64,000 nucleotides of DNA from Candidatus Dojkabacteria bacterium (GCA_046753765.1 JBHHUN010000001.1:12141-76140); one strand, 5' to 3'. Positions 5,452-64,000 are shown, numbered from the stretch's first letter. A program made the numbers and translations. Notes: generated by a model not told the origin, from the letters alone.

Positions 5452-5465
5452 ACACTTGCTTAGTG

Positions 5466-5474
5466 TGCTATAAT
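5466..5474 (+). promoter_or_regulatory. Extended -10 promoter element TGcTATAAT upstream of rpsB
   Basis: TG at 5466-5467 followed by TATAAT at 5469-5474, about 100 nt upstream of the rpsB ATG. The -35 is weak (aactaa). Confidence 0.35.
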
Positions 5475-5571
5475 CATTCCAAATTCACACACCCCTTTAA
5501 TTTATATTCCTTGTCACTTGAGGCATATGTCAAAGTGATCACAGGGGTGGAGGCGGAAAGGAGTAACAAGT

Positions 5572-6588: not shown

Positions 6589-6619
6589 GCTAAAATACTT
6601 TTTATTATTAGGTTACAAA

Positions 6620-7231: not shown

Positions 7232-7233
7232 GC

Positions 7234-7788: not shown

Positions 7789-7803
7789 TTAGGATTCAAA
7801 TAT

Positions 7804-9399: not shown

Positions 9400-9454
9400 T
9401 ATCTGATATAATTAATCTCTCACTTGATTTCTTCTAGAACGGAGGTGTTAGTAA

Positions 9455-9667
9455 ATGTCAGTTATCGTTCATGATGACATGCCCATAGATCAGGCACTCA
9501 AGATGCTCTGGCGTGAGGCAAATAGAGAAAATATACCAGTTGAATTGTTAAAGAACCGTTACAGGGTCAAACCTGCTTCTGCCCGTCACGAGTTCAAGAA
9601 GTACTGGGAAAAAACCAAAAGGCGCCGAAAATCTGCTAAACGCAGACGCATCAGAGCAGGTAAATAA
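9455..9667 (+). CDS. rpsU: 30S ribosomal protein S21
   Basis: 70 aa. Aligns to S21 (VIVHDDMPIDQALKMLWRE...RYRVKPASARHEFKK + basic tail). GGAGGTG Shine-Dalgarno upstream. Confidence 0.75.
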   Translation: MSVIVHDDMPIDQALKMLWREANRENIPVELLKNRYRVKPASARHEFKKYWEKTKRRRKSAKRRRIRAGK

Positions 9668-9700
9668 AGCTTACCAAATCAACCAATTTACGATTATAAG

Positions 9701-11200: not shown

Positions 11201-11245
11201 GTAGTTTGAAACTCAAGTATCAATTTAATTATTAGATGAATAACA

Positions 11246-11551
11246 ATGGCAGGTGCATTTAATCAGATGAAAGACCTCTACAAGATGCAAAAAGAAGCGC
11301 GTCAGATGCAAAAAAAGATGAAGAAGGTTAGAGTTACTGGCATGTCAGACGATGAGCTGGTCCATGTCACTATTAATGGTACACAGGAGCTTGAGGAGGT
11401 TGAGGTTGATGATCAGCTACTTGATATCCATCGCAAAAAAGATCTTCTTCGCGGCTTTAAGCAGGCAATGAAAGACTCTCAGAAGCGGTTGCAGAAGGAG
11501 ATGATGAAAGATATGGATATGGACAAGCTCAAAGGCATGCTCGGAGGGTAA
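11246..11551 (+). CDS. ybaB: Nucleoid-associated protein YbaB/EbfC
   Basis: 101 aa. YbaB signature (MKDLYKMQKEARQMQKKM...GMSDDELVHVTINGTQEL). Conserved dnaX-ybaB-recR synteny. Confidence 0.8.
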   Translation: MAGAFNQMKDLYKMQKEARQMQKKMKKVRVTGMSDDELVHVTINGTQELEEVEVDDQLLDIHRKKDLLRGFKQAMKDSQKRLQKEMMKDMDMDKLKGMLGG

Positions 11552-11554
11552 AAG

Positions 11555-12163
11555 ATGTCCAAACTACCGTCTTCGGTACAAAAACTGATCGAACATTTTG
11601 GTCGATTTCCGGGTGTTGGTCCCAAGTCAGCTGCAAGGATGGTCTTCTACTTATTAAACTCCCCGACAGATAGAACAGACGAGCTGGTTGGAGCGATTGA
11701 TGAGATGAAGTCTAGTATTGGGTTTTGTGAAATCTGCAACAATCTGGCAGAAAACGATGCTCACTGTTTGATCTGTTCCGATACCGAGCGTAGAGCTAAC
11801 CAATTGATGGTCGTTGAGGATGTTCTTGACCTTATCGCATTTGAAAGAACAGGTGATTACCTTGGTAAGTACCACGTCCTGGGCGGTGTAATATCACCGG
11901 TTCTTGGCATAGGTCCGGAGGACATCAACCTTACAGGTCTTTCCAAGAGGATTAATCTGCACAAGGGTGAGCTTGAGTTGATAATAGCAACGAATCCGAA
12001 TTTAGAGGGTGAGGCTACTGGTATGTATATAAAGGAAGAGCACAAAGACAAGGATGGAATCACTATAACCAGGATCGCCCGGGGTGTTCCGACAGGTGCC
12101 GACCTCGACTATGCTGATCGATTAACTCTCAAAAGAGCTCTTTCTGGGCGCACCTCACTTTAG
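11555..12163 (+). CDS. recR: Recombination protein RecR
   Basis: HhH (FPGVGPKSAARM). C4 zinc finger (CEICNNLAENDAHCLIC). Toprim (VVEDVLDLIAFERTG). Confidence 0.9.
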   Translation: MSKLPSSVQKLIEHFGRFPGVGPKSAARMVFYLLNSPTDRTDELVGAIDEMKSSIGFCEICNNLAENDAHCLICSDTERRANQLMVVEDVLDLIAFERTGDYLGKYHVLGGVISPVLGIGPEDINLTGLSKRINLHKGELELIIATNPNLEGEATGMYIKEEHKDKDGITITRIARGVPTGADLDYADRLTLKRALSGRTSL

Positions 12164-12317
12164 ACTCACGTGACAAGTATTCCCCCCATAGACGAAATGG
12201 GTATTATCCTGTAATAATACAGGTATGTAGTTTTCTGTGTTCACTAAACTCCGAGGATGTATTGTTATTTACTACACAATACTTCCAATTATATCTCTCG
12301 CGAGTTAGAATATCTGT

Positions 12318-13775
12318 ATGTTTAAATTCTACAATACGCTAAATAGAAAAAAGGAAAGTTTCACGGTGGAGCATGAGGGAAAAGTGTCAATGTACAACTG
12401 TGGGCCCACTGTATATTCCAGGCTTACAATTGGTAACTTACGAACTAATGTTTTTTCTGACTTACTTAGACGCTCATTAGAGTACGTTGGTTTCGAAGTG
12501 AAGCAGGTAATGAACATTACTGATGTTGGCCACCTGACTATGACCGATGAGCAGAAGAGAAAAAATGTTGATGCTGAGGTGACTGATACTGACGATGGTG
12601 TGGATCGCATGGAAAAGGCAGCGAAGAGAGACAATATGACAGTGTGGGAGGTCGCCAGCCACTACACAAAACTGTTCGTTGCGGATATGGATGAATTGAA
12701 CATTAAGCGACCACATGTGATGCCAAGGGCCACAGACCATATTGCCGAGCAGGTTACGATGATCAAGCAACTGATTGACAAAGGATATGCTTATGTTACG
12801 AAAACTGCGGTGTACTTTGATACCTCAAAATTCGCTGCTTACAGTCATCTTGCGGGACAAGACCTAAATGAGAAGCAGCAAGCTGTCCGCAATGATGTAG
12901 AACAAGATGAAACAAAAAGGCATCCTGCAGACTTTAGATTGTGGCAACTCAATAGGCCTGACCATGCGATGCAGTGGGATTCGCCCTGGGGGAAGGGTTT
13001 TCCTGGGTGGCACATTGAGTGTTCTGCTATGTCGCTCAGGTATCTGGGGCAACCCATAGATATTCATACGGGGGGAACAGACCATATCCCCGTGCATCAT
13101 ACAAACGAGATAGCCCAGTCAGAGGCGGCCACAGGCTCGAAATTCGTTAATTACTGGCTGCATGGAGCCTTTCTTACTGTTGATAACAAGCGCATGGGGA
13201 AAAGTCTCGGTAATGCATATACCCTTGCCGATGTTGAAGCAGAGGGTTTTGATCCACTTGACCTGAGGTATTTCTACCTGACTGCACACTACAGGCAGAT
13301 ATTAAATTTCACCTGGGAGGCGTTAGGTGCAGCAAGTGCAAGGCTCGTGAAGCTTGAAGGTGCTGTTGAGCAGTGGAGGCGTGAGAGTGGAGGCAGATCG
13401 GGGCAGATATTAAATGTATACAAAGATAAGTTCGTGGCTGCTATAAGTGATGATCTGAATATTCCAAAAGCTTTGGGAGTGGTTTCAGAGTTATTGGATG
13501 CAGATGAGAAAGCAGAAGACAGATTGGCTACATTGCTTGATTTTGATAAAGTTCTTGGGCTTGGGCTCTATAAGATCAATCTCTCAGAAGAGCAAAGAGA
13601 GGATATTGAGACTCTAGTCTCAGAAAGAAAAGATTTGCGCCATCAAAAGCAATGGAAAAAGGCCGATGCCATTCGTGACGAGTTGTTGACAAAGTATTCT
13701 GTGGAGCTTGATGATACAGATACTGGCACACAGTGGCGATGGGTACGCCCAAAAAGAAATAATAAAGAGTTATGA
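12318..13775 (+). CDS. cysS: Cysteinyl-tRNA synthetase with a non-canonical HIGH motif
   Basis: CysRS signatures are present: CGPTVY, WHIECSAMS, PVHHTNEIAQSE and a DALR-2-like C-terminus. Where HIGH is expected the sequence reads TIGN (YSRLTIGNLRT). The KMSKS position reads RMGKS. Confidence 0.8.
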   Translation: MFKFYNTLNRKKESFTVEHEGKVSMYNCGPTVYSRLTIGNLRTNVFSDLLRRSLEYVGFEVKQVMNITDVGHLTMTDEQKRKNVDAEVTDTDDGVDRMEKAAKRDNMTVWEVASHYTKLFVADMDELNIKRPHVMPRATDHIAEQVTMIKQLIDKGYAYVTKTAVYFDTSKFAAYSHLAGQDLNEKQQAVRNDVEQDETKRHPADFRLWQLNRPDHAMQWDSPWGKGFPGWHIECSAMSLRYLGQPIDIHTGGTDHIPVHHTNEIAQSEAATGSKFVNYWLHGAFLTVDNKRMGKSLGNAYTLADVEAEGFDPLDLRYFYLTAHYRQILNFTWEALGAASARLVKLEGAVEQWRRESGGRSGQILNVYKDKFVAAISDDLNIPKALGVVSELLDADEKAEDRLATLLDFDKVLGLGLYKINLSEEQREDIETLVSERKDLRHQKQWKKADAIRDELLTKYSVELDDTDTGTQWRWVRPKRNNKEL

Positions 13776-42858: not shown

Positions 42859-43353
42859 ATGTATCAACAAAGTCAAAGAGAAGTGATTGGCACTCTGGAC
42901 AGTGATTCTGGGCGTTTAGTCGAGGGGTTGTTAAAACTGATCCTGCTAGTAGTGATCTTTTTGCTTGGTGGTCTTGCATATAAGTTAGCTAATGAGGGTG
43001 GAGTACTTCCTGAACAGTTGTCATCTGGTTCCCGATCGAGTGAGAATGTCAGCGCAGGAGGCAACAGTAGTAGCGAGTTGTCAGTGGAGGAGGCTGTTGA
43101 AAAGATAATGTTGATCTCAACAGATGAAACACCAACGGTTGCGACAATTGTTGATAGTGAAAAACTCAAACAAGCCAACCCGGATTTCTACCAGAACACA
43201 CTAGATGGAGACCAGCTGCTGATTTACAGCAACCGGGCGATCATTTACAGGGCTCAGGACGGTCTGATCATCAATGTCCTCCCCATCACGAGGGATGATC
43301 TAAAGGATTCGGTAACACAAGTTGCTGGGGAAGAGACGGAAGCTCTCGAATAA
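42859..43353 (+). CDS. Single-pass membrane protein with one copy of a roughly 55-aa repeat shared with 43740..44444 and 52657..53781
   Basis: N-terminal TM helix (LKLILLVVIFLLGGLAYKLA). The C-terminal region VATIVDSEKLKQANPDFYQNTLDGDQLLIYSNRAIIYRAQDGLIINVLPI matches the repeats in the other two proteins. No known-family match recognised. Confidence 0.5.
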   Translation: MYQQSQREVIGTLDSDSGRLVEGLLKLILLVVIFLLGGLAYKLANEGGVLPEQLSSGSRSSENVSAGGNSSSELSVEEAVEKIMLISTDETPTVATIVDSEKLKQANPDFYQNTLDGDQLLIYSNRAIIYRAQDGLIINVLPITRDDLKDSVTQVAGEETEALE

Positions 43354-43493
43354 GTCCCCTTGTTCATATCATTTGATCGGATATTTAGGCTGAATAGTGC
43401 ACTTGTTATCAGTTTCTTTCGGTCTCATATGACTCTCGGATAGAGTCTTTTTACAATAATGCATAAAAAATATCTTTTTTCTTGTACTAAATC

Positions 43494-43519
43494 TTGACTC
43501 GACTGAATATATCTATAAT
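43494..43519 (+). promoter_or_regulatory. Orphan promoter-like element TTGACT-14-TATAAT in a long intergenic region
   Basis: TTGACT at 43494-43499 and TATAAT at 43514-43519. The 14 nt spacer is shorter than optimal. It lies about 50 nt upstream of a strong hairpin terminator. Confidence 0.2.
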
Positions 43520-43569
43520 AATGAATTAGCTTTTTGCACTTGTAACTATTTTAGCTGCCTAAGCTTTAC

Positions 43570-43610
43570 AAAAAATTCAAGCCTGCACAGCTTGAATTTT
43601 TTCTTTTTAC
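43570..43610. terminator. Rho-independent (bidirectional) terminator hairpin
   Basis: Perfect 13-bp inverted repeat AAAAAATTCAAGC (43570-43582) / GCTTGAATTTTTT (43590-43602) around a 7-nt loop. It is flanked by an A-run on the 5' side and TTCTTTTT on the 3' side. Confidence 0.5.
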
Positions 43611-43739
43611 CCACAAACGAGCATTCAATATTTGTGAATATTATGTTGGCATAGACCTCTTGATCTGATAGTCTGTATCTACACCCAATTTTTACTGTTT
43701 GTTTGGTACTTCTTATTCATAAATATTAGAATCACAACA

Positions 43740-44444
43740 ATGCACGCACAAAACTTGCCCACAAACAATCAACCCACTGCAAATCAGATGGGGCATCCCT
43801 CACCAACTTCGGCTCCCTCTAGAGGAAGCAAAATAGCTGTCCTCTTTGGAATTGCAGTTGTCTTGTTTGTCCTTCAATTGGTAACACTGTATTTAGTAGT
43901 GAATCCGCCTTACCTTGCTCAGCAGAACCTTACAAGACAGGTAATAGATGAGGTATCCCAGATGGTCGAAGTAAATCCATTTGAAACACCTATTGTTAGT
44001 GTTGTTGCAGATGCGGAAAGCTTAAGGTCCGCTAATAACATCCAGGGAGATGTCTATGCAAACGCACAGGACGGTGACTATGTTCTTGGATTTTCAGATA
44101 AGATGGTAATCTATCGAAGAGAGACTGGAGAGGTTGTTTATGAGGGGGAGAGTCCCGGATCGATACTAAATAAAAACCAACAGAATCTTAGACAGAGCGT
44201 TATCAACGCAGCTCAAACAAAGGGTCTTATCCCTGAGGGAGAAGAGGTAAATCCACAAATGTCTGTGGTCACAGATCCTGCGGTACTGCGTAGCCAGGAT
44301 GCCAGTTTCTACGCAAACGTACAGGAAGGTGACGTTATTGCTGTATTTCCTAGCAAACAACTGATAGTGCTTGTAAGGGCAAATGAGTCAGGAACATCGG
44401 TTATACAGTCAGGAAGCTATACAACCTCAATAAACTCTAACTAA
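43740..44444 (+). CDS. Single-pass membrane protein with two copies of the shared roughly 55-aa repeat
   Basis: TM helix (IAVLFGIAVVLFVLQLVTLYLVV). Repeat 1: IVSVVADAESLRSANNIQGDVYANAQDGDYVLGFSDKMVIYRRETGEVVYEG. Repeat 2: MSVVTDPAVLRSQDASFYANVQEGDVIAVFPSKQLIVLVRANESGTSVIQSG. Confidence 0.5.
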   Translation: MHAQNLPTNNQPTANQMGHPSPTSAPSRGSKIAVLFGIAVVLFVLQLVTLYLVVNPPYLAQQNLTRQVIDEVSQMVEVNPFETPIVSVVADAESLRSANNIQGDVYANAQDGDYVLGFSDKMVIYRRETGEVVYEGESPGSILNKNQQNLRQSVINAAQTKGLIPEGEEVNPQMSVVTDPAVLRSQDASFYANVQEGDVIAVFPSKQLIVLVRANESGTSVIQSGSYTTSINSN

Positions 44445-45681: not shown

Positions 45682-47754
45682 ATGGCTAAACAGCTACATA
45701 ATCTCCTTCTTGGAAAACATTTCGGGATTGAGACAACGCTAGTGGATCATAAAGACAGCGGATACAAATTAAAGAACGCCACCCTATTCAGAATTCCTCA
45801 GTACCTAACACCCAAGCATTTAGACGATTCAGAAACGATTGGGCGTGACATCATTTATGCTAACGATGCAGACACCTGGGGGACAAAACTGTCGGCCAGG
45901 TATATGATTGTACCAAACCAATCGAGCAGTGTAGAGATTTCTCAGCTTAGTCAGGTACTTGATAGAAAACTGGCGGTGATCGAGCTGACGTTTGACTACA
46001 TAAAAATAACGTCAGACTCTGACGACGTGATGATCCCCTTTGACGGTGAACAGCTCTCCCTCACGAAGAGCGTGCGAAAGTTAGCTAAGGATATGGGACT
46101 CAGTAACTCAAAATTGACATCGGCGCTAATTAACGCTCCCGTAGTTGCAACAGACGTTCTCTCAAAAGTGTTTAACGCACGGTTGCTGATGCAGATTCTG
46201 CGTTCCCAATCTATACAACTTTTAGAGTTTGAGCAGGTGATATTTACTGGTGAGATGGTCTGGAGTAGATGGGTTGATATCTCAGGGATACTTGCGATAT
46301 TTGAGCTTATCTTTGCAGGCAGAAAAGTTGAGATTCTCATTGACTTCAACGCGATTTTTCAACTTTTACTAATGTCAGAATTGAAGATAAAAGAATTGAG
46401 TCGACTGAACGGTGAGCTCCTGAAGCCTCAGGTTACGTGGATAGATGACAGGTCGCTTCTGACCAAAAATCGAAAACTGCATGAGTTGGATCTCAAGAAA
46501 AAGGGGGGAGAAAAAAAACTAATCCTTACGAAAGACAGGATCGGACTGTTTGATCTTAGAGAGAGTGGATATAAGTTAGCTGGAAGAGAAATTACGAGGT
46601 ATATCTATATCAATGTGTTCGTTAGTGTTGCTAGGCTTGTCGATAGCGCGAATACAAAAAAATACGAACAGGCATGGGTGCAACCGTTGGAATGGGATAG
46701 TCAGTATGCAAATGTAAAATATTGGCCTCTGCCAAGACTATGGGTAGATGAGTCACAACACATGTTGAGCCAAAGTGATTTCTCGAGCTACAGTCTGGAT
46801 CTCAATAAGGGAAGCAAGGTAAGCGACAATCAAGACTTTGGAAAGTATACAAGTAGTACAATGACGGTTTTCAATTACCAAAGTCATGCCGGTGAAATTA
46901 AAAGTCACTTGCAGGTTAACGATCACCAGCATGTAAAAAAGGGATCGCGGCTAACGATAGTTCCTACACTGGGAGGTGTCTGGGATAAGTACCTAACTGC
47001 GCCACACGACGGCAGAATTGATCTCAGGCTCATTGATGATGGAATAATTCTTCTTAAGGTAGATGAAGAAAAAGCTCTTAACTTCAGGTTTCCGATGCAT
47101 ATTAGTAACAAGCTGAAATCGGGTGGATTTGTTTTTAAAGCAACATCACTAAACTTCCCCCTGGCACAGTGGTCTGGCAGACAGGTCTCTGGCTATTTGG
47201 CATCTTCTGTCACAGAGGTTGATTCTGGTCAGAAGATCATAATAATGGACGATGTTTCAGAGTTTGACTTGAGCATTGAGAAGATATTTGAGAGGCAGAT
47301 CGCCGCGATTCTATTTCGCAGGTCTTCACGAAACTCATATGTAAACTTCATAAAATCCAATATCAGGCAGTTGAAGGTCTTGTCCTTTGGATTGCTAACT
47401 GGGTTTGAAGAGAAGATGGAAGCAGAGATAAAACTAAAGCTAGAAGAGTATCTGGGCGAGTTTGCTTTGATCGATAGGGGAGCACTCAGTATTCCATTAA
47501 ATGTCTCTAGATCAAAATTTGTAATGGGTAATAGTGACGACACTCGGCAGTTAAGCTTTAGTCTAAAGGATTTTACCGGTCAGCTTTGTAAGGGAGAAAC
47601 AATCAAAGTTTTTAGTTATCTTGACACAGAAGCTTATGTTAGAATAGAGAAGGTTCATTCCGACAGTGATGCACTTGGGGTTAATAGCACAGGTGCATTT
47701 GACTTTAATATCATTAATTCACAGCCCTTAATCTTAAGATATGGAACAGACTAA
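45682..47754 (+). CDS. Hypothetical protein (690 aa), no recognisable domain
   Basis: Long clean ORF with ATG start, no TM or signal peptide. It sits where rplI would be expected after rpsR. Its 3' end overlaps the ctpA start by 14 nt. No motif I can assign. Confidence 0.5.
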   Translation: MAKQLHNLLLGKHFGIETTLVDHKDSGYKLKNATLFRIPQYLTPKHLDDSETIGRDIIYANDADTWGTKLSARYMIVPNQSSSVEISQLSQVLDRKLAVIELTFDYIKITSDSDDVMIPFDGEQLSLTKSVRKLAKDMGLSNSKLTSALINAPVVATDVLSKVFNARLLMQILRSQSIQLLEFEQVIFTGEMVWSRWVDISGILAIFELIFAGRKVEILIDFNAIFQLLLMSELKIKELSRLNGELLKPQVTWIDDRSLLTKNRKLHELDLKKKGGEKKLILTKDRIGLFDLRESGYKLAGREITRYIYINVFVSVARLVDSANTKKYEQAWVQPLEWDSQYANVKYWPLPRLWVDESQHMLSQSDFSSYSLDLNKGSKVSDNQDFGKYTSSTMTVFNYQSHAGEIKSHLQVNDHQHVKKGSRLTIVPTLGGVWDKYLTAPHDGRIDLRLIDDGIILLKVDEEKALNFRFPMHISNKLKSGGFVFKATSLNFPLAQWSGRQVSGYLASSVTEVDSGQKIIIMDDVSEFDLSIEKIFERQIAAILFRRSSRNSYVNFIKSNIRQLKVLSFGLLTGFEEKMEAEIKLKLEEYLGEFALIDRGALSIPLNVSRSKFVMGNSDDTRQLSFSLKDFTGQLCKGETIKVFSYLDTEAYVRIEKVHSDSDALGVNSTGAFDFNIINSQPLILRYGTD

Positions 47755-52656: not shown

Positions 52657-53781
52657 ATGGCAAAAAAAGCCCCAAAAAGTAAGAAAACTAGCAAAAGAAA
52701 ATCTAGTAAAGCAAAAAAGTCAGAGAAAGAGACAGTAAAAAGGTCGGCAGAGAAAGATAAAGCAGAAAACTCAGATAAGTTTGTTCCTACGTTTCTTGGT
52801 GGTGCCAAGTCAAAAGCAGCCGCTAAGGCCAAGAAGGTGGAAGAGGTGGAAGAGGATGTTGTCGAAGAAGCCCCTGCCGAAGAAGAAGCCCCTGCTGAAG
52901 TTTCTGAGGAGAGTGAAGTAATAGGGAAAGAAACCGAAACAAATGCAGAGCCAGAAGATCAACCAGCAGGAAGCAGATTCAGTTCTCTTATGCGGGCAAA
53001 AGGTGAGGCAGACGAGGGTGCGATCGGTGGAGATGAGGAGGAAGACAAGGGGGAGAAAAAAAGCAAGAAGAGTTTCTATATCGTTGTTGGAGTATCACTT
53101 GTTTTAATAGTAATTGCTTTTGCCTATTTGCTTATTTCCCGGAATAATCAAACTTCAGAAGTAACACCAACGGATGATCAGATGACGACCGACACAACTG
53201 AGGTCGAACTTGTTCGGAGTACAGTCGATCTGTTGGCAGAGGTTGCTGAGCTCCCCAATGAGATCCCACTTGTTGCAACTATCAACGATTTGGAACAGTT
53301 TAAAGAAGTCGATGCAGCTTTTTATGCGAAAGCCTATATTGGTTATAAGGTTATCATATATCAAGAGTCAAATATGGTTTTTCTGTTCAATGAGACTACC
53401 AATAAGGTTGTAAATATCGGGACGCTAAGTCAGGTGCCGTCAATAGATGAGATTGAACTCGAAGAAACAACTGGCACGGTTGATGAGATTTCCGGACTAA
53501 CAATCTTGATTTTGAATGGAACAACAGCTCCTGGTATAACCCTCGGCTATCAAGGGGAGATAGAAGATCTTAGTGGCGATTACACTGTCACCGACAGGGC
53601 CACAGCTGAGATCCTTGGGTATGCTGAAACAAAGCTGTATGACCTCACAGATGGTACAAAAGAAAACAATATTAAAACTCTTGCAGATGCTCTTGGGATT
53701 GAAGTGGTCGAAGGTCTACCTAATGCCGAACTAGAATCAGATACGGATGTCGTGATAATCTTGGGAGAAGACAGGATTTAG
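52657..53781 (+). CDS. Membrane protein with K/E-rich N-terminal tail, one copy of the shared roughly 55-aa repeat and a C-terminal LytR_C-like domain
   Basis: The N-terminal 130 aa are Lys/Glu/Ala-rich and of low complexity. TM helix (FYIVVGVSLVLIVIAFAYLLI). Repeat: LVATINDLEQFKEVDAAFYAKAYIGYKVIIYQESNMVFLFNETTNKVVNIG. The C-terminus LTILILNGTTAPGIT...TKLYD...TDVVIILGED resembles the LytR_C pattern (V.VLNGtg..G.A......v.vvLG.D). Confidence 0.55.
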   Translation: MAKKAPKSKKTSKRKSSKAKKSEKETVKRSAEKDKAENSDKFVPTFLGGAKSKAAAKAKKVEEVEEDVVEEAPAEEEAPAEVSEESEVIGKETETNAEPEDQPAGSRFSSLMRAKGEADEGAIGGDEEEDKGEKKSKKSFYIVVGVSLVLIVIAFAYLLISRNNQTSEVTPTDDQMTTDTTEVELVRSTVDLLAEVAELPNEIPLVATINDLEQFKEVDAAFYAKAYIGYKVIIYQESNMVFLFNETTNKVVNIGTLSQVPSIDEIELEETTGTVDEISGLTILILNGTTAPGITLGYQGEIEDLSGDYTVTDRATAEILGYAETKLYDLTDGTKENNIKTLADALGIEVVEGLPNAELESDTDVVIILGEDRI

Positions 53782-53875: not shown

Positions 53876-54433
53876 ATGGTTTTACGCAATGTAAAAGGAA
53901 ACCTAGTCCTTGAAGGTAAGGACGTTAAGGTGTTAGTAGCTACAGCCAAGGGCAAGGATGCCGGAGGCAAGGTTGAACCTGACATCATACTGTCAAACAG
54001 AGATGATTTACAGCCTACGGAGGGCCAGAGTTTAATAGATTCCGCTGGTGAATATGAGATTAAAGATGTTTTTGTTTATGCATTAAGTACAAATGGAGAT
54101 AAATTAGTAGATCTGTTCAGCATCGACCTTGAGAATATAAAGATAGTATATGTTGATGAGCAGACCCGCCAGATAGGAAAGAAGGTGCTTGACCAGGTAG
54201 GTATAGCGAATATTGTAGTGATCGATATGGAAAACAGTAGTCTCGAAGAGAAGGTGAATGTTATCCGTGTGCTCGATCCTGAGTATCTAATACCTCTTGG
54301 TTCGCAAGAAGTGATTAAAAAGCTGGCCAAGCAGTTGGAGCTTGAAATTCCTGATACAGAGAAGAAATTCAAGATCAGGAGTTCAGAATTGAGCGAAGAA
54401 GATTATGGGCTGAAGCTGGTACTATTGCAATAA
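53876..54433 (+). CDS. Hypothetical protein (185 aa), histidine-free, weak resemblance to a degenerate MBL-fold
   Basis: ORF with ATG start directly upstream of dnaB, in the position rplI usually occupies. No L9 signature. The pattern KVLVATAKG...PDIIL / GEYEIKDVFV loosely recalls small MBL-fold hydrolases, but the protein contains no His at all. Confidence 0.4.
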   Translation: MVLRNVKGNLVLEGKDVKVLVATAKGKDAGGKVEPDIILSNRDDLQPTEGQSLIDSAGEYEIKDVFVYALSTNGDKLVDLFSIDLENIKIVYVDEQTRQIGKKVLDQVGIANIVVIDMENSSLEEKVNVIRVLDPEYLIPLGSQEVIKKLAKQLELEIPDTEKKFKIRSSELSEEDYGLKLVLLQ

Positions 54434-55840: not shown

Positions 55841-56206
55841 ATGGGGAAGAAACTACTAATTGTTGAGGACGAGAAGCCCATAGCACGCGCGTTGGAGCTG
55901 AAGCTTTCTAACTCGGGGTTCGAAGTGACTGTAGCCCTAGATGGCCAGAAGGCGATTGATCTGGTAGATAACGGTGAGTTTGACCTCATCCTACTGGATC
56001 TGGTTATGCCAAATCTGGATGGCTTTGGATTTCTCACGCAGCTGAAAGAGAAAGGGAAAAAGATCCCCGTTATTGTAACTTCCAACCTAAGCCAGGATGA
56101 AGACATCGAGAAGGCCAAACAGATGGGGGCAGTTGGATACTACGTGAAATCTAACACACCGCTCGCTGATATCGTAGATAAAATCAATCAATATTTCGCT
56201 AAATGA
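55841..56206 (+). CDS. Stand-alone response-regulator receiver domain (CheY/PilH-like)
   Basis: 121 aa. Receiver motifs (LIVEDEKP; DLILLDLVMPNLDG; VIVTSNL...K). No output domain. ATGA overlap with pilB. Confidence 0.8.
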   Translation: MGKKLLIVEDEKPIARALELKLSNSGFEVTVALDGQKAIDLVDNGEFDLILLDLVMPNLDGFGFLTQLKEKGKKIPVIVTSNLSQDEDIEKAKQMGAVGYYVKSNTPLADIVDKINQYFAK

Positions 56207-57864
56207 GACTGGATGACAAACGCATACGGGATCTACTGCTCAAGAACAGTTACGTAAGTAAAGACGACATCAAAGCAGCTGAGAAGTATGCAAAAGAAAG
56301 AAATGCGACCGTTGTAGACTACCTGCTCAAGGAGGAATTGATTAATAAGGACCTTCTGGGGCAGGCGATAGCAGAGTTCTACAAGGTAAATTATGCTGAC
56401 CTTAACACTAACATCCCTACCCGTGAAGATGTACTTAAGATTCCTGCAGATATTGGAAAGAAATATCGGCTGGTCATAGCAAACCAAACCACAGACAGCT
56501 ATACGATTGCAACTGATAATCCTCAACAAAAAGGACTGTTACCGGCACTTAAAGATCTTTTCAGAAATAAAAAAATAACTCTAGCATTCTCAATCCCAGA
56601 AGACATCGATGCGTCTCTTGTGCATTATCGTGAACCCCTCGAAACCAGGTTTAAGAAGATTCTTGAGAACTCTGAGAGTGTTGCGCCTGAGGTTGTAGTT
56701 GAGATAATTGATGATGCAATAGTTGATGGGGCCTCGGATATTCATTTTGAACCACAGGAGAAAGATGTTCTAATCCGTGTCAGAATCGATGGTGTATTGC
56801 GTGAAGCTGCCCGTATAGGTAAAAAGTACTACGACAATATTCTAAACCTGATCAAAGTAAACGCACATATGAGAATCGATGAGCACAATGCAGCCCAAGA
56901 TGGTTCGATGCGAATTGTTAAGGGCGACAGGAGAGTTGACATGCGTGTGTCTGTCATGCCCACCCTCGACGGTGAGAAGATCACTGTCAGGATACTCTCG
57001 GAATATGTAAGCAAGTTCTCCCTCTCTGACATAGGTTTGTCCGAACGAGACCAGGATCTGTTTATCGAAGCCGGAAAGAAGCCATTTGGGATGATTCTGG
57101 TTACTGGTCCAACTGGGTCAGGAAAAACGAGTAGCCTATACTCTCTAATCAGGATTTTAAACACTCCAGAGGTAAATGTAACGACAATCGAAGATCCTGT
57201 TGAATACAAAATCAAAGGCGTGAATCACATTCAGGTTAACACTCAAACAGAACTTACTTTTGCAAAGGGTTTGAGGTCAATCGTCAGGCAAGATCCTGAT
57301 ATCATCCTAGTTGGAGAGATACGTGACCAGGAGACAGCCGAAATAGCTGTTAACGCTGCACTGACCGGACATCTTCTATTATCAACATTTCATGCTAATG
57401 ACGCTGCAACCTCTATTCCGAGATTGCTTGACATGGGAATTGAATCGTTTCTGCTTGCATCAACCTTAGAGCTGGTTGTGGCACAAAGACTGGTCAGAAA
57501 GATCTGCCTTGCTTGTCGTATCAGCAGAAAATACACAAGAGCAGCTCTTGTAAAAGAGCATCCCTTTCTCGATGATTATCTATCTAAGAAGAAGAAAGAG
57601 TTTACACTCTATGACACAAAGCCCTGCAAAGCGTGTCCGGGGGGTGGTTTTCAGGGAAGGACTGCAATCTTTGAGTTCATTAAAGTGACAAGGGAGATGC
57701 GGGATTTAATCCTTCAGGACCCCTCTACAAATGAGATTCTTGACCTGGCAAAAAAACAGGGTTTTGTCACAATGTTCGAAGATGGTTTGGATAAGGTTTT
57801 CAATGGAATTACCACATTGGATGAGCTTTTGCGTGTGGCTAAGCCACCGGAGACCCATGCTTAA
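56203..57864 (+). CDS. pilB: Type IV pilus assembly ATPase PilB (GspE family)
   Basis: N-terminal GSPII_E_N region. Walker A (GPTGSGKTS). Walker B/Asp box (DPDIILVGEIRD). His box (LLSTFHAND). Tetracysteine (CLACR...CKACPGGG). Confidence 0.9.
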   Translation: MRLDDKRIRDLLLKNSYVSKDDIKAAEKYAKERNATVVDYLLKEELINKDLLGQAIAEFYKVNYADLNTNIPTREDVLKIPADIGKKYRLVIANQTTDSYTIATDNPQQKGLLPALKDLFRNKKITLAFSIPEDIDASLVHYREPLETRFKKILENSESVAPEVVVEIIDDAIVDGASDIHFEPQEKDVLIRVRIDGVLREAARIGKKYYDNILNLIKVNAHMRIDEHNAAQDGSMRIVKGDRRVDMRVSVMPTLDGEKITVRILSEYVSKFSLSDIGLSERDQDLFIEAGKKPFGMILVTGPTGSGKTSSLYSLIRILNTPEVNVTTIEDPVEYKIKGVNHIQVNTQTELTFAKGLRSIVRQDPDIILVGEIRDQETAEIAVNAALTGHLLLSTFHANDAATSIPRLLDMGIESFLLASTLELVVAQRLVRKICLACRISRKYTRAALVKEHPFLDDYLSKKKKEFTLYDTKPCKACPGGGFQGRTAIFEFIKVTREMRDLILQDPSTNEILDLAKKQGFVTMFEDGLDKVFNGITTLDELLRVAKPPETHA

Positions 57865-59261
57865 TGAAAATTGATAAAACTGCCCCCAAAAAGAAAAAGA
57901 AGTTAACTTTTGCTTCTAAAGTAAAGAGGGTGCTTACAACTCCTATAGGGGGACTAACTAAAGAAAAGGAGTTGTTTATCCAAAACCTCTCAATGCTTAT
58001 TACCTCTGGGCTGGATGTAATAACAGCTTTGAAAGCCACGCAGTTTGATATCCGTTCCAGACGAATGCGTGAGCTGACGGATCAGATTACCGCAGATGTT
58101 AACGCGGGATCGCCTATGTGGAAAGCATTTGAAGAAAATAATCTTCTCCCCAGCTATATGGTTGCTCTTGTTAGAATTGGTGAAGAGACCGGGAAGCTCC
58201 CCGAGAACTTAATAATCATTGTTGAACAGCAACAAAAAACAAGACTGTTCAAATCGAAAATCATTTCAGCAATGATCTACCCTGCGATAATATTTGGCCT
58301 GAGTATCTTTATAGGGATCGGGATCTTTGTATTTGTCCTGCCGAGACTTTCTAACGTCTATAACGCACTTGGTATTGATCTTCCTTTTATCACAAAGGTA
58401 ATGATATTTACAGGGACGTTTCTGCGTGACTACGGAATTATCGTTTTACCTCTTGCTGGTTTATTAATAGCAATAGTCTTTTACTTCCTTTTTGTGAGAG
58501 AGCGGAGTAAGCATGTTGGCCAGCGAATGATCTTTTCGATCCCTGCGTTGAGAGGGATCGTCAGGAATATCGAGATTGCCAGGTTTGGCTTTATGTTCTC
58601 AACTTTGCTTGAAGCAGGACTGCCAATCCTGGATGCAATTTCATCTTTAGGCAGGTCAACAGGTTACTATAACTACAGTAAATTCTATCGCCATCTCGAA
58701 CGGATGATTGAGGAGGGCTATACTTTTCAACAGGCGTTCAAGAGATTTAAAAAAATAGAAAAGATCTTTCCGGTACCAATACAACAGATTGTAATTGCCG
58801 CTGAAAACTCTGGAAGGCTAATGAAATCTTCTTCGCAGATAGGCACAAGTTTTGAAGAGAAGATCGACTCCTCGAGCAAGAATCTTGCAGTCGTTCTTGA
58901 ACCATTAATGCTCATTATCGTGTGGCTGGGTGTTGTGTTTGTGGCTCTTTCGGTCATATTCCCTGTTTATAATCTTGTTGGTGGAGTTGGTCAAAGTAAC
59001 GGTAATGGGTCGGTTTCGTCTCCAGTGGTTGATTTCAACAAAGCAGGAACACTCACAGTCGTGTCTGATCAGGAGCAGGTAAATGTATACAAAGACCCAG
59101 CAGACGAATCTCCCGTAGAAAGTACAATTGAGAGTGGAATTACCCTAAGATTCACGGCGACAAAAGACGGTTGGGTGAAAATTGTGATTGATGAAACTAC
59201 TCAGGATACAGGATGGATTCAAGAAGAACTGGTTCAAATAATAGTTGATCTATCAGAATAG
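57864..59261 (+). CDS. pilC: Type IV pilus platform protein PilC (GspF family) with a C-terminal SH3b-like extension
   Basis: Two GspF repeats (LSMLITSGLDVITAL...; LLEAGLPILDAISSL...). 3 TM segments. An extra roughly 85 aa follow the last TM (VNVYKDPADESPVESTIESGITLRFTATKDGWVKIVIDETTQDTGWIQEELV). TAATG overlap with pilB. Confidence 0.85.
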   Translation: MKIDKTAPKKKKKLTFASKVKRVLTTPIGGLTKEKELFIQNLSMLITSGLDVITALKATQFDIRSRRMRELTDQITADVNAGSPMWKAFEENNLLPSYMVALVRIGEETGKLPENLIIIVEQQQKTRLFKSKIISAMIYPAIIFGLSIFIGIGIFVFVLPRLSNVYNALGIDLPFITKVMIFTGTFLRDYGIIVLPLAGLLIAIVFYFLFVRERSKHVGQRMIFSIPALRGIVRNIEIARFGFMFSTLLEAGLPILDAISSLGRSTGYYNYSKFYRHLERMIEEGYTFQQAFKRFKKIEKIFPVPIQQIVIAAENSGRLMKSSSQIGTSFEEKIDSSSKNLAVVLEPLMLIIVWLGVVFVALSVIFPVYNLVGGVGQSNGNGSVSSPVVDFNKAGTLTVVSDQEQVNVYKDPADESPVESTIESGITLRFTATKDGWVKIVIDETTQDTGWIQEELVQIIVDLSE

Positions 59262-59263
59262 CG

Positions 59264-59710
59264 ATGACAAAGCAAAGACTACAGCAAGCGTTTACATTAT
59301 TCGAGCTACTCCTGTCGATGTCGCTGTTGGCAATGGTTGCAGCTTTTTCAGTACCGCTCTACCAGAGTTTTCAGACCAGCAACGATCTTGAGTTGACGGC
59401 CGATATAACTACTCAGTCACTCAGAAGAGCGCAGTCATTGGCTATGAGTGGTGATGGTGATGCAAATTGGGGTGTATATATCCAGAACGGGAGTGTCACG
59501 TTATTTCAAGGTGACGATTACGCCACGAGGGATACAAGCTTTGATGAAGACCTGGAGATTAGCGACAAGATAAACCTCTCAGGGCTAAGTGAGCTCGTTT
59601 ATGAGAAATTTACGGGTGATCCTTCAGCGACAGGTACGATCAATCTCTCCATAGCCAGTGGCGAAACAAGAATTATTACGATTAATTCAAGGGGTACAGT
59701 AGATTTCTAA
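59264..59710 (+). CDS. Prepilin-type minor pilin/pseudopilin (GspH/FimT-like)
   Basis: Class III signal: MTKQRLQQA | FTLFELLLSMSLLAMVAAF, with Glu at +5. 148 aa. Confidence 0.7.
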   Translation: MTKQRLQQAFTLFELLLSMSLLAMVAAFSVPLYQSFQTSNDLELTADITTQSLRRAQSLAMSGDGDANWGVYIQNGSVTLFQGDDYATRDTSFDEDLEISDKINLSGLSELVYEKFTGDPSATGTINLSIASGETRIITINSRGTVDF

Positions 59711-59711
59711 G

Positions 59712-62261
59712 ATGAACCGGAACAAGAAATTAAAATCATTTAGTCTTGTAGAAGTACTGTTGGCAATGACGTTGCTGGGTATTATCATGATGTCGTTGGC
59801 TGGAGCTCTTGGCTTCGGTCAAGAGAGCAGCCTTGCTGCTGGCAATACTGCAAGAGCAAGTTTGATCGCTGATGAGGGGGTTGAGGCTGTAGATAATATT
59901 GCCGATGAGGACTTTGCGAATCTTGTCGATGGTACGTACGGACTTGCTGTGTCAGGAGGGGTCTGGACGTTCTCGGGAACGAGTGATACTACAGATATTT
60001 TCGAGAGAGTAGTCACGATTTCAACGGTTGATACGTATACTAAGCAGGTAACATCTGAGGTCACCTGGAGCCAGGGGGCAGGTCAGCTACCACGAGTAGT
60101 TACGGTTGACTCGTACGTCTCTGACTGGTCTCGACTTGTGGTTACATCAAATAGCACATTCCGAGCAACCGAATACTACCTGGGAACTGGCGTTTTTTCG
60201 GGAAATTCGTATAGCCTTACTTTGAATCAGGACCTTGAAAGTAATTACTTTGTTATCGTTCAGGGGAGTGACGGCAACGGAAGTCGCAGAGGGACCCGTG
60301 GACCAGATGAAAATTACGTCTCGCTTACAGCTGACCCATTTGGGACAGGTGCCCTCGGAACATCGGGAGGAACGGCTATCCTTGGTTTCACTAGACAGAA
60401 CAGTGTTAACAGCTGGGTAGGGGTAGTAACAGTTGTTGAGTGTCTTGGAGACTGTAATGCCTCTGGGTTTGAACTGTTGGATGTTGAGAGGGTGACTCAT
60501 TCAGGCACAGCAACATCGGGTAGTGTTACAACTACTTCCTGGTCAGATATTGGTCAGGTGATGTTGATGGGTGGGTTCAATGGTTCGGGTTGTGACACAA
60601 CCCAGACAAGGAGTTTTAGGTCCAAAGTGTGTCATGTGAGGATGTATCCTTCAGGATCAAATACAGTAAACTGGACTCGTAACTCCGGTGGTGCCTCGTT
60701 GAGAACTGCAACCAGCACAACGATGGTAGTAGAGTGGGGCAGTGAGTGGACCATCCAGAGGGCAAACGTGACAGGAAACAACGGTGGTAACGGTGCTGAT
60801 GCCACTGGAGAGTACTCAAACGGGGCCATTTCAGGTGTTGCCAGAGATAACACCTGGGTGTGGGGCACTGGACACACTAACGACCAGGGGATCGGTGATG
60901 CAGCCGAAGGCGTGCTGGTTACTCTGGGTGACGGGGTCAATCAGAATGGAACAGAAACGCAGGTGTCCGTTGGAATGGAGTACGGAGGGAATTCCATGAA
61001 TTTCGAGGTTTATGCGCTCACACATCCCGATCTGGCAGTTGACTATCGCTTCAAGGCAGATGGGCATGCTGGCAATCTGACACTAGATACTACAGTAGAC
61101 TCTGCGTCGGATGTTGATGCGCGCATGGCGTTGATTTATAACGGCCAGAACGGGACCGGAAACGCCTATCCACGTCCGCACTTCTCGGCGCGGTACATAA
61201 ACAACACTACGGTCAGGGCTGAACGAAGACGCACAGGCCAAAACTGGCCTGCATGGATTCAGGGGATTAACTTCTCTGCTATTACCTATAGTACGGGGGG
61301 CGGTGGTACCGGCGACTGGAGTGCACCGCTTCAGCAAAGCCAGATCAACCTGGCAGGCAATGAAAACGCTCTGGGGGTTAGGGTGCAGGGAAATTACGCT
61401 TACGTTGTAAGGGACATCGCCGGCACAAATTTCGTAGTTGTAGATATCAGTAACCTATCAACCCCTTTGGTAGTTGGATCCCTGAGTTTACCTGATAAAC
61501 CGACATCTGTTGCTGTGGGTAGTGCTTATGTAGGCAGCAAAAGTAATTCGGGGGAGTTGCAAATAGTTGATGTTTCAACACCATCCAGTCCGAGCCATGT
61601 CGGAACATACAATGCTGCTGGAGACAAAGATGCTAAGGCGCTAACTGTTGATGGAACAACGGTTTATCTTGTTAAGAAGAAGGAAGGTGGTGGTGATGAG
61701 CTGTTTATTATTAATGTTTCGATACCGGCCAGTCCATCGCTAATCAGTTCACTTGAGCTGGGTGACGAAGCGAAAGGTGTGGTTAAGATAGGCAACTATC
61801 TCTACATTGGAAATAAAAGCAACTCCCAGGAACTGCAGGTTATCGATGTAACTACTCCCGCAACCCCAAGCATTGCAGGCAGCCTGGACTTGAGCGGGAA
61901 TGACGATCCTGAATCTATTGATGGTGCCGGATCAATGATAATACTTGGCCGAAGAAACGATGTTTACGTAATTGATATCTCAACCCCAACTTCACCAACT
62001 GTATTAGGCTCATTCAATGCCGGTGGCAAAGTAAAGGGTGTATCATACCATCCTTCATCAGATTACATTTTTCTGGCAACCGAGAACGGCTCACAGGAGT
62101 TTCAGGTCGTTGACATCTCATCCCCTGCAAGTATTACTTTGGTAGGAGGACTTAATGTTTCCGGGAAACTAAAGGGCATTGACTACTCTCCGGGACTGGA
62201 TAGGGCGTTTGGGGCAAGTGATTCAAACTCAGAAGAATTTATTATCTTTCAGCCACAGTAA
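59712..62261 (+). CDS. Giant PilV-like prepilin (849 aa) fused to an LVIVD-repeat beta-propeller
   Basis: Class III signal: MNRNKKLKS | FSLVEVLLAMTLLGIIMMSLAGALGFGQ (PilV-like). The C-terminal roughly 330 aa carry at least 5 LVIVD-type repeats (GNYAYVVRD..., FVVVDISNLSTP, LQIVDVSTPSSP, LQVIDVTTPATP, VYVIDISTPTSP, FQVVDISSPASI). Confidence 0.7.
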   Translation: MNRNKKLKSFSLVEVLLAMTLLGIIMMSLAGALGFGQESSLAAGNTARASLIADEGVEAVDNIADEDFANLVDGTYGLAVSGGVWTFSGTSDTTDIFERVVTISTVDTYTKQVTSEVTWSQGAGQLPRVVTVDSYVSDWSRLVVTSNSTFRATEYYLGTGVFSGNSYSLTLNQDLESNYFVIVQGSDGNGSRRGTRGPDENYVSLTADPFGTGALGTSGGTAILGFTRQNSVNSWVGVVTVVECLGDCNASGFELLDVERVTHSGTATSGSVTTTSWSDIGQVMLMGGFNGSGCDTTQTRSFRSKVCHVRMYPSGSNTVNWTRNSGGASLRTATSTTMVVEWGSEWTIQRANVTGNNGGNGADATGEYSNGAISGVARDNTWVWGTGHTNDQGIGDAAEGVLVTLGDGVNQNGTETQVSVGMEYGGNSMNFEVYALTHPDLAVDYRFKADGHAGNLTLDTTVDSASDVDARMALIYNGQNGTGNAYPRPHFSARYINNTTVRAERRRTGQNWPAWIQGINFSAITYSTGGGGTGDWSAPLQQSQINLAGNENALGVRVQGNYAYVVRDIAGTNFVVVDISNLSTPLVVGSLSLPDKPTSVAVGSAYVGSKSNSGELQIVDVSTPSSPSHVGTYNAAGDKDAKALTVDGTTVYLVKKKEGGGDELFIINVSIPASPSLISSLELGDEAKGVVKIGNYLYIGNKSNSQELQVIDVTTPATPSIAGSLDLSGNDDPESIDGAGSMIILGRRNDVYVIDISTPTSPTVLGSFNAGGKVKGVSYHPSSDYIFLATENGSQEFQVVDISSPASITLVGGLNVSGKLKGIDYSPGLDRAFGASDSNSEEFIIFQPQ

Positions 62262-62263
62262 AG

Positions 62264-62779
62264 ATGAGAAAACCCAGAACAAGAAAAGCATTTACTTTGG
62301 TTGAAATTATCCTTTATGTCGGACTGGTCTCCATGCTTTTGGTTGTAGTGGCCGGATTCCTCACATCTGTGCTTCAGTCGCGAGAACGTTCTGAAACAGT
62401 ATCAGAGGTGGACAGTCAGGGCGTGAAGGTTATGCAGGACATAATTCAGACAGTTAGAAACGCACAGGCAATAAACTCTCCAACACAAGGTAACTCGGCT
62501 GCAACACTTTCGCTTGATGTTGTCGATGGTGGGGCAGACCCTACTGTCTACGACCTGTCAGGTGGAGCACTCACAATCACCGAAGGAGGCGGCGCGGTAG
62601 TAGACCTGACTTCTGGCAGGGTTACTGCCTCGGGGCTTGTGTTTGAAAATTTGACTCGCCCGGGCACAGACGGCATAGTAAGAATAGAATTCACCCTCAC
62701 CCACGTTAATCCTGAAGGCAGATTTGAGTACGATTATGCGCAAATATTTTACGGCTCAGCAAATCTGAAACAGAATTAA
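62264..62779 (+). CDS. Prepilin-type minor pilin/pseudopilin
   Basis: Class III signal: MRKPRTRKA | FTLVEIILYVGLVSMLLVVVAGF. 171 aa. Confidence 0.7.
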   Translation: MRKPRTRKAFTLVEIILYVGLVSMLLVVVAGFLTSVLQSRERSETVSEVDSQGVKVMQDIIQTVRNAQAINSPTQGNSAATLSLDVVDGGADPTVYDLSGGALTITEGGGAVVDLTSGRVTASGLVFENLTRPGTDGIVRIEFTLTHVNPEGRFEYDYAQIFYGSANLKQN

Positions 62780-62782
62780 AAT

Positions 62783-63166
62783 ATGAAGGCATACATATCT
62801 TTAATAACAGTAATAATAGTGAGCTTTGTCGCAGTGGGCATCACTGTCACATTTATTATGCTTGGTATTGGGGCGACGCAAACAAGTGAATCACTCGAAC
62901 TTTCAATAAAGGCAAAAGCCCTTGCAGATGCCTGTGCTCAGGATGGGCTCGAAACTATAAGGGAGAACACAAGCTACACTGGTACAACTAATTTATCACT
63001 TGGTGAAGGTAACTGTTCTTTCACTGTGACAAATCAGGGTGGTGAGGTACGTAGAATTGAAGTAACTGGCACGGTCGACACAGTTATCCGTAAGGTACTA
63101 ATTACAACAAGTCAGCTAAACCCACAGATACTGATTTCAAGCTGGCAGGAAGTTGCAGATTTTTGA
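62783..63166 (+). CDS. PilX-like minor pilin (PilX_N-type N-terminus)
   Basis: An N-terminal hydrophobic segment is followed by GATQTSESLELSIKAKALADACAQDGLE, which matches the PilX_N pattern (Q.S......A...AEAGLE). 127 aa. Last gene of the pilin run. Confidence 0.45.
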   Translation: MKAYISLITVIIVSFVAVGITVTFIMLGIGATQTSESLELSIKAKALADACAQDGLETIRENTSYTGTTNLSLGEGNCSFTVTNQGGEVRRIEVTGTVDTVIRKVLITTSQLNPQILISSWQEVADF

Positions 63167-63282
63167 GTAATCACAAATTGAATAAAAGACTGTCCGAACA
63201 AATAAATGAGCTTCTTGGCGATGATTATCAGGTTCCTCCCGAACTGGAGGGAATATTTGAGAAAATAAATTCTCAATATGAT

Positions 63283-64000
63283 ATGTGCGATAAACACTCG
63301 CTTTACGAGATGATTTTCAACAACGTTGGAGATATCATCACTTATGTTAGCAAGACCGGTAAGATCCTGGATGTTAATAAGAAAGTCGAAGACATTCTCG
63401 GCTATAAAGCAGATGAACTCATAGGTCAGAACTTCCTCACTCTTGGAATTCTCAATTCAGACAATCTCAAGAGGATGGCGGCTTTGTTCAAAGAGGGGAT
63501 GATGAAAGGCATAGTTCAAAACCCGGTCGAGGTAGCAATAAACGCAAGGGATGGTCATCTCGTCCATTTTGAAGTTCGTACAGGCGTTATTAAAAAGGAG
63601 GGAAAGGTTGTTTCAATGTTCAGTATCCTTCGAGATATCACAATTAAGAAGCTTGCCGAAAAAAAGGAGAAAGAGGTTACGCAGCAACTATCAGAAAATA
63701 ACTCCATACTGAAGATCATTGCGGACACTTCGACTAGTTTTGTCAACGTCCAATCTGGTGAATTGACTAATAAGATTAGTGAAGCACTGGAGCTGCTCGG
63801 TAATTCTACGGATGCTGACAGGTGCTACATCATAATGTACTCCGATGATTTGACGACAATGACGAATACGCACGAGTGGGTAAGAGAGGGTATATCATCT
63901 CAGAAAGAGCACCTCCAAGCAATAGCCTCTGATAGTTTTCCCTGGATGCTTGAGAAGATGAAGAGAAGTGAAAAGGTTATGTTCTCCAATCTTGATGATA
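63283..64000 (+). CDS. PAS-domain sensor protein (probable histidine-kinase N-terminus), 3'-truncated by the window edge
   Basis: The frame is open from 63163 to the window end. First ATG at 63283. An alternative TTG at 63163 overlaps the upstream stop. PAS-like segments (YEMIFNNVGDIITYVSKTGKILDVNKKVEDILGYKADELIGQNF; DADRCYIIMYSDDLTTMTNTHEWVREG). Confidence 0.55.
   Translation, partial: MCDKHSLYEMIFNNVGDIITYVSKTGKILDVNKKVEDILGYKADELIGQNFLTLGILNSDNLKRMAALFKEGMMKGIVQNPVEVAINARDGHLVHFEVRTGVIKKEGKVVSMFSILRDITIKKLAEKKEKEVTQQLSENNSILKIIADTSTSFVNVQSGELTNKISEALELLGNSTDADRCYIIMYSDDLTTMTNTHEWVREGISSQKEHLQAIASDSFPWMLEKMKRSEKVMFSNLDD

Follow-up and report, generated by a model that had tools for sequence, protein, structure and literature searches.

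To our knowledge, how ultrasmall Patescibacteria find and hold their hosts is largely unknown, and type IV pili are the sole attachment organelle experimentally shown so far, in Saccharibacteria. Among the described systems that bear comparison are the modular pilins defined by Raynaud et al. 2021 (PNAS), who found over 1,200 of them, spread over 264 architectures, and whose Dataset S1 contains rows for pilins with LVIVD repeats (IPR012902-IPR013211; PMC8179133). One pilin in the study, of 860 residues and from Candidatus (Ca.) Falkowbacteria, has IPR013211 (PMC8179133), the LVIVD repeat (PMC10210494), 12 times over; LVIVD pilins were listed there only, never studied (PMC8179133), and our literature search found no dedicated study of them. 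In Nanosynbacter lyticus TM7x (Saccharibacteria), the minor pilin PilX2 has a C-terminal seven-bladed RCC1-type propeller and is required for efficient host binding, not for filament extrusion, and PilX1 has a C-terminal jelly-roll lectin-like domain absent from domain databases (PMC11623550). Here we analyze a 64,000-nucleotide stretch of DNA from an ultrasmall bacterium of Candidatus Dojkabacteria, in the candidate phyla radiation (GCA_046753765.1 JBHHUN010000001.1:12141-76140; hereafter the window), which encodes, near its end, a type IV minor pilin composed of a pilin module, an undescribed domain that we call domain B and an LVIVD propeller.

The pilin-LVIVD fusion itself is known; what is new here is domain B, together with the tri-modular pilin variant. 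Our analysis establishes the architecture of the protein, the folds of its modules, its operon and the synteny thereof, and the recombination of modules. On balance, we consider it probable that the protein is a tip-displayed modular minor pilin of a Patescibacteria type IV pilus, bearing two ligand-binding heads.

A minor pilin of three modules

The open reading frame (ORF) of interest, hereafter the target, and its parts lie as follows.

59712-62261, plus strand: target ORF, ATG start, 849 residues; tri-modular type IV minor pilin (pilin module, domain B, LVIVD propeller)
59712-59909, plus strand: class III-type signal (MNRNKKLKS then FSLVE; Ser at -1, Glu at +5) and alpha1 helix, residues 12-66 (N_methyl match; AlphaFold2 helix)
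59910-60131, plus strand: pilin head, six-stranded beta-sheet, residues 74-137, completing the 'lollipop' fold (AlphaFold2)
60147-61289, plus strand: domain B, undescribed all-beta domain starting FRxTEY, residues 146-526, with four Cys; the most conserved module
61314-62258, plus strand: LVIVD seven-bladed beta-propeller, residues 535-849 (PF08309; AlphaFold2)

The ORF starts and ends where an earlier note on this DNA, made from the sequence alone, had placed it. Its product is identical to NCBI MFQ5492587.1, from a Candidatus Dojkabacteria metagenome-assembled genome, which is annotated only as 'prepilin-type N-terminal cleavage/methylation domain-containing protein', and the same protein is present on two contigs. 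Comparison with 119 homologues by BLAST resolves it into three independently distributed modules: A, the pilin (residues 1 to ~143), B (residues 146-526) and C, the LVIVD module (residues 535-849). In the full-length alignment, pilin+LVIVD proteins cover target residues 1-145 and 535-849 and leave a clean gap exactly over B, and pilin+B proteins match modules A and B only. The earlier note had described a protein of two modules, overlooking domain B, the most conserved and least understood of the three. An AlphaFold2 model of the full-length target (predicted local distance difference test, pLDDT, 87.8; predicted template modelling score, pTM, 0.58) has low-confidence linkers at residues 141-145 and 528-533. 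The target thereby has the elements by which modular pilins are defined, namely a pilin motif, at least one domain not specific to type IV pili and a linker (PMC8179133).

Across the 5.8 billion clusters searched, the full tri-modular layout is found only in the target and in P0002, a protein of 847 residues from an independent sample that has 54% identity to the target over 99% coverage and is encoded in the same operon. Module by module, the two are 38% identical in the helix, 51% in the pilin head, 68% in B and 42% in the propeller. This orthologue bears on whether a frameshift or mis-assembly might have fused the gene of a normal minor pilin with one or two others. We found nothing in favour of such an artefact, and we reject it as having practically no chance of being true: the ORF is uninterrupted, with no frameshift splitting it into the separate proteins that the earlier note had allowed for, the identical protein occurs on two contigs, P0002 repeats the same modules among the same neighbours in another sample, and fusions of the pilin+LVIVD kind number several hundred, those of the pilin+B kind dozens.

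The N-terminus of the target reads MNRNKKLKS followed by FSLVEVLLAMTLLGIIMMSLAG, with the basic leader, Phe at +1, Glu at +5 and hydrophobic stretch of a class III signal; the residue at -1 is Ser. Gly is canonical there, and of the 34 full-length homologues in which a motif scan recognised the motif, 33 have it. The Pfam N_methyl model (PF07963) gives 22.1 bits, where the cutoff is 21.2, and TIGR02532 scores 12.1, below its cutoff of 16.3. Because of the Ser, the barely sufficient N_methyl score and the TIGR02532 score under its cutoff, we regard the signal as credible but not as the textbook example that it had been called. Gly is absent from -1 in each of the operon's three pilin-like gene products, where Ala or Ser takes its place (QQA/FTLFE, LKS/FSLVE and RKA/FTLVE, at window positions 59264-59290, 59712-59750 and 62264-62300), and this may reflect a lineage-specific prepilin peptidase specificity.

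The rest of module A is predicted to adopt the 'lollipop' fold, with a 55-residue helix (residues 12-66) and six strands (residues 74-81, 84-88, 92-94, 97-107, 110-119 and 128-137) modelled at pLDDT ~80-96. The head has a median identity of 45% to the heads of both the pilin+B and the pilin+LVIVD families. The target is PilV-equivalent by gene order only, as the second of four minor-pilin genes; the label 'PilV-like' given to it earlier has that basis only, and membership of the PilV family by sequence is rejected, since the PilV model TIGR02523 reaches 13.7 bits where 52.2 are required and the other minor-pilin models fare likewise (ComGE 17.7 against 49, XpsI 14.7 against 150, and GspI also far below). 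ComGE is the best NCBIfam match of the target (E=0.003), below cutoff.

Module C belongs firmly to the LVIVD family, with PF08309 scoring 95.2 bits against a gathering threshold of 20.2 (E=1.4e-27, five scored stretches). By eye and by regular expression we located six full motifs, at residues 574, 616, 664, 708, 751 and 797, and a terminal EEFIIF at 842, for seven repeats with a period of ~44 residues; the earlier note had assigned the family correctly and counted at least five repeats, missing LFIINVS (residue 664) and the last strand. That the repeats form a beta-propeller, as the note had supposed, agrees with the AlphaFold2 model, in which 28 strands make up seven four-stranded blades (pLDDT 92-98) of a closed propeller. 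The C-terminal propeller domain of the PilY1/PilC adhesin family (IPR008707) was not found in the target, and PilY1 homology of its propeller is rejected.

A search with the LVIVD part returned 702 proteins, the best 120 of which are nearly all Patescibacteria pilin+LVIVD proteins of ~450-490 residues, one of them named PilV by the Joint Genome Institute. The pilin-propeller fusion reported by the earlier note is genuine, lies inside a type IV pilus operon and recurs in related genomes. It is not, as the note had it, unusual: several hundred homologues of ~470 residues hold the same operon position, the fusion appears in Raynaud et al. 2021 (PMC8179133), and within Patescibacteria it is the form that this gene commonly takes.

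Domain B and its carriers

Scanning all 49 non-redundant members of domain B against Pfam-A and NCBIfam gave no match, and a profile comparison with the PDB gave none either, so that neither a curated model nor a solved fold describes the family. Sequence searches of the PDB with each target module returned nothing useful, and Foldseek against BFVD returned only matches of low template modelling score. The domain has a confident predicted structure without a close solved relative, and the weak similarities of the predicted fold, to receptor-binding domains of phage tailspikes, pyocin fibres, H-type lectins and a single-chain adiponectin trimer, all point to receptor-binding pieces. The Cys residues of the target copy (244, 248, 294 and 307, two of them nearly invariant) and its content of Gly, Ala, Ser and Thr (42%) fit an extracellular domain. 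Recurrent motifs of the family are FRVTEY, QGSDG, DPFGTGDL, VVTVVEC, RxNTWVWGTG, TLGDGV, DYRFKxDG and ERRRSGQ.

Alignment of the 49 copies yields a mean column identity of 53%, with 29 invariant and ~60 nearly invariant positions that include Glu, Arg, Tyr, His and Asp. Conservation of this kind is more typical of catalytic domains, adhesins usually diversifying, and it underlies the strongest rival to a binding role, namely that B is an enzyme, for instance one that degrades or modifies glycan or peptidoglycan, acting on the envelope of a target cell after delivery by a pilus tip, a phage tail or a giant surface protein, with the propeller doing the binding. The conservation of B relative to its neighbours in P0002 (68% against 38-51%) and its identity of 45-66% across unrelated phyla also speak for an enzyme. 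However, B matches no catalytic family in Pfam or NCBIfam, and we judge an enzymatic role unlikely relative to a binding head on a tip-displayed pilin.

When 1.84 billion cluster representatives were searched exhaustively with a profile, only 353 proteins proved to contain B, 250 of them with E below 1e-30; the family is a rare one with sharp limits. Among its carriers are pilins, proteins that combine a signal peptide with DUF11 repeats (Gracilibacteria, Peribacteria), and proteins as long as 5,378 residues with LamG, cadherin-like, SdrD-like or fn3 domains, in which B often occupies the extreme C- or N-terminus. The domain follows a pilin, a pilin and other domains, or a signal peptide, closes cadherin, LamG or DUF11 giants at their C-terminus, or stands in tandem, and these placements fit a distal head on a stalk. 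In species-representative genomes, B is found at 132 loci, from Patescibacteria, Acidobacteriota, Desulfobacterota, Gammaproteobacteria metagenome-assembled genomes, Verrucomicrobiota, Kiritimatiellota, Lentisphaerota, Planctomycetota and Myxococcota; the best 80 of the 132 are 43-66% identical to the Dojkabacteria copy, with no obvious taxonomic gradient.

Two of the matches (L061, L062) come from a verrucomicrobium in culture, Luteolibacter sp. AS25 (NZ_CP151837.1), whose complete genome has them ~9 kb apart in neighbouring genes; this could be a tractable organism for work on domain B. At L061, an ORF at 2701-7131 encodes 1476 residues with no Pfam match and B at the C-terminal end, and its neighbour at 7594-12531 encodes 1645 residues with LamG.

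Domain B is also encoded on five IMG/VR contigs, two of which have it in a tail-gene context.

L084, 345-10679: tape-measure gene (PhageMin_Tail), then B-carrying ORF with B as its first ~400 residues; viral contig of high guanine-plus-cytosine content
L087, 323-9361: tape-measure gene (PhageMin_Tail), then B-carrying ORF with B as its first ~400 residues; viral contig of high guanine-plus-cytosine content

On both contigs, B is the N-terminus of a protein (1,892 residues on L084, 1,467 on L087) that starts right after the tape-measure gene, and hhalign indicates full-length homology between the L084 copy and domain B (probability 100%, E=2e-53, 38% identity). Contig L083 was not counted as phage evidence; the region looks bacterial (DUF1501, LamG, Ig-like), and PHROGs returned nothing for the neighbours of its B-carrying gene. 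Cluster representatives of ~1,900 residues with B at residues 3-405 (e.g. P0129, P0165, P0183) may be proteins of the same kind as those of L084 and L087.

A domain of 380 residues, strongly conserved and having escaped all domain databases, connects pilus tips with giant adhesins and with phage tail proteins. We tentatively entertain the possibility that B is an undescribed, horizontally mobile 'contact head' that recognises, or acts on, a widely conserved component of the bacterial envelope, independently recruited to three devices: the pilus tips of episymbiotic Patescibacteria, the giant adhesins of Acidobacteriota, Desulfobacterota, Verrucomicrobiota and Kiritimatiellota, and phage tail-tip proteins. 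In the target, B and the LVIVD propeller might then act together in a two-headed recognition of the host. Defining the B family would let censuses of modular pilins catch members that are currently missed, and would provide a tractable soluble domain for ligand screening.

The pilus operon and its surroundings

The target lies in an operon that recurs at four other Patescibacteria loci (L001-L004), one of them, L004, in the complete genome of a Ca. Moraniibacteriota (CP064974). The remaining genes of the operon in the window, and the ORF that follows them, are listed below.

55841-56206, plus strand: response-regulator receiver, first gene of the operon (PF00072, E=2.6e-24; same position in L001-L004)
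56203-57864, plus strand: PilB/GspE-type assembly ATPase (PF00437, E=4e-119)
57864-59261, plus strand: PilC/GspF platform protein with C-terminal SH3 domain (PF00482, E=9e-42; SH3_4/SH3_3)
59264-59710, plus strand: 148-residue minor pilin, ComGD/GspH-like, Ala at -1 (N_methyl, 23.6 bits; ComGD, E=1.1e-6, below cutoff)
62264-62779, plus strand: 171-residue pilin-like protein (RKA then FTLVE) in the ComGF/PilW/GspJ position (N_methyl, 17.3 bits, below cutoff)
62783-63166, plus strand: 127-residue protein with an N-terminal hydrophobic helix, without Glu at +5, in the ComGG/PilX/GspK position (from sequence)
63170-64000 (frame of 63151), plus strand: ORF with PAS-like sequence, directly after the gene for the 127-residue protein and running off the window end

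From the receiver to the gene for the 127-residue protein, with PilB, PilC, a pilin, the target and another pilin in between, gaps or overlaps are of at most 4 nucleotides, and the gene for the 148-residue minor pilin stops 1 nucleotide ahead of the target. The order of the pilin genes corresponds to GspH-I-J-K, FimU-PilV-PilW-PilX and ComGD-GE-GF-GG. Family matches of the 171-residue protein, to ComGD and ComGF, are weak; the 127-residue protein has none in Pfam or NCBIfam, and its equivalents are ORFs of 130-147 residues in L001, L003 and L004. The C-terminal SH3 domain of the platform protein (SH3_4/SH3_3) is kept in all four related operons.

The large pilin holds its core position in every one of these operons, and its payload differs between them: B and LVIVD in L001 (P0002), B alone in L002, and LVIVD alone in L003 and L004. 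Core minor pilins prime assembly in type IVa pili and in type II secretion systems (PMC7541494, PMC11623550), which, with the conserved position, would suit a target whose sole role is in priming or structure. Its bulky domains would then remain close to the envelope, where they might act as a stopper or cell-wall spacer, for instance, and not as adhesins. Against this stands the free exchange of payload at the position (B, LVIVD, B+fn3, B+LVIVD), which is expected of a variable ligand-binding function and not of a structural one, and the presence of the same modules on surface proteins outside the pilus and on proteins of phage tails; we consider a purely structural role improbable. With a payload swapped by lineage at one operon position, the gene is a candidate determinant of target specificity.

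The same gene order admits a further alternative, in which the filament is a competence (Com-type) pseudopilus whose large pilin serves the uptake of DNA or nutrients and not adhesion to a host. The best NCBIfam matches of the three pilins are ComGD, ComGE and ComGF, in the order comGD-GE-GF-GG, and dprA lies in the same window; Patescibacteria, moreover, are thought to scavenge nucleotides. Every Com match, however, falls below its curated cutoff and covers mostly the N-terminal helix, and no known DNA-binding pilin module resembles either the propeller or B. Competence in TM7x was the same for the wild type and for those thin-pilus (T4P-2) mutants that were tested (PMC11623550). Uptake and adhesion are not mutually exclusive, and we give a competence role in place of adhesion only a small probability, retaining a tip-displayed adhesive pilin as the preferred reading.

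Beyond these core genes, the related loci have one or two N_methyl pilins of ~150 residues, probable major pilins, between the equivalent of the 127-residue gene and the PAS gene, a PAS histidine kinase and then a receiver following; the target locus has no such pilin there. At L002, a 636-residue LamG (Laminin_G_3) protein is encoded two genes downstream, within the pilin cluster (7193-9103), and may be a second modular pilin.

Elsewhere in the window, three consecutive giant ORFs (18304-42742, plus strand) take up 38% of the sequence. The first encodes 2717 residues with nine LamG_3 stretches, DUF2341 and Toxin_R_bind_N, the second 2139 residues with six LamG_3 stretches and DUF2341, and the third 3183 residues with no Pfam match at E<=1e-3; they are probably surface proteins of this episymbiont. 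ORFs of 690, 374, 185, 164 and 234 residues (45682-47754, 52657-53781, 53876-54433 and 42859-44444, plus strand) have no Pfam match, the 374-residue one being rich in Lys and Glu in its N-terminal half, after which comes a hydrophobic segment. The dprA gene (DNA_processg_A, E=3e-71; 2165-3214, plus strand) bears on a possible role of the pilus in DNA uptake. The remainder of the window consists of housekeeping genes, and Rfam and transfer RNA scans of it were empty.

Proposed mechanism and comparison with known systems

We propose that the prepilin-like N-terminus of the target would be cleaved, and that its 55-residue alpha1 helix and small beta-sheet head would insert into the filament beside the 148-, 171- and 127-residue minor pilins. 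By their correspondence to GspH-I-J-K, ComGD-E-F-G and FimU-PilV-W-X, these four proteins may prime assembly, with the tip of the pilus as their final place. Domain B and the seven-bladed LVIVD propeller would extend from the pilin head as independent globular payloads on short flexible linkers, and both could bind ligands and so hold the pilus on a surface, for which a host bacterium's envelope is the likeliest candidate. What we propose for processing, tip location and binding follows modular pilins and TM7x PilX2, and by the same analogy (PMC8179133, PMC11623550) the pilus-tip adhesin suggested by the earlier note appears the most reasonable reading.

Several points weigh against this reading. 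The Ser at -1 of the signal is non-canonical; neither a prepilin peptidase nor PilT nor an obvious major pilin was seen within the window; and the tip location is deduced from size and gene order only. An enzyme, too, would fit the strong conservation of B across phyla (45-68% identity), in which numerous Glu, Arg, Tyr and Trp residues do not vary, and the LVIVD repeat has been called a motif of unknown function (PMC8179133, PMC10210494).

Compared with known systems, the target shares with the modular pilins of Raynaud et al. 2021, and with PilB and PilC of Streptococcus sanguinis, a pilin module, a short linker and modules that are not pilus-specific, and a role as tip-exposed adhesin has been proposed for those proteins as it is here. 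Unlike the LVIVD pilins of that study, it carries two payloads, one of which, B, has no signature and for that reason could not be detected by a census based on domain databases. The minor pilins of ~470 residues with pilin and LVIVD modules found in Patescibacteria (e.g. P0255, from Ca. Moraniibacteriota CP064974, and P0064) occupy the same operon position and align with the target end to end, apart from the 380-residue domain B, which they lack and which in the target sits between pilin and propeller. Identity to the target is 23-67% in the pilin head, over all aligned homologues, and 25-51% in the propeller, with a median of 45% for each. The minor tail proteins of the L084 and L087 phages, of 1467-1892 residues, have a full-length homologue of B as the target does, but at their N-terminus and unaccompanied by either a pilin module or an LVIVD propeller. 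PilY1/PilC, the tip adhesin of type IVa pili, is a large propeller-containing adhesion protein displayed together with the minor-pilin tip complex (PMC8179133). PilX2 and PilX1 of TM7x are, like the target, patescibacterial minor pilins with a bulky C-terminal domain; the PilX2 propeller is of the RCC1 and not the LVIVD type, and PilX2, unlike the target, has no predicted PilD signal.

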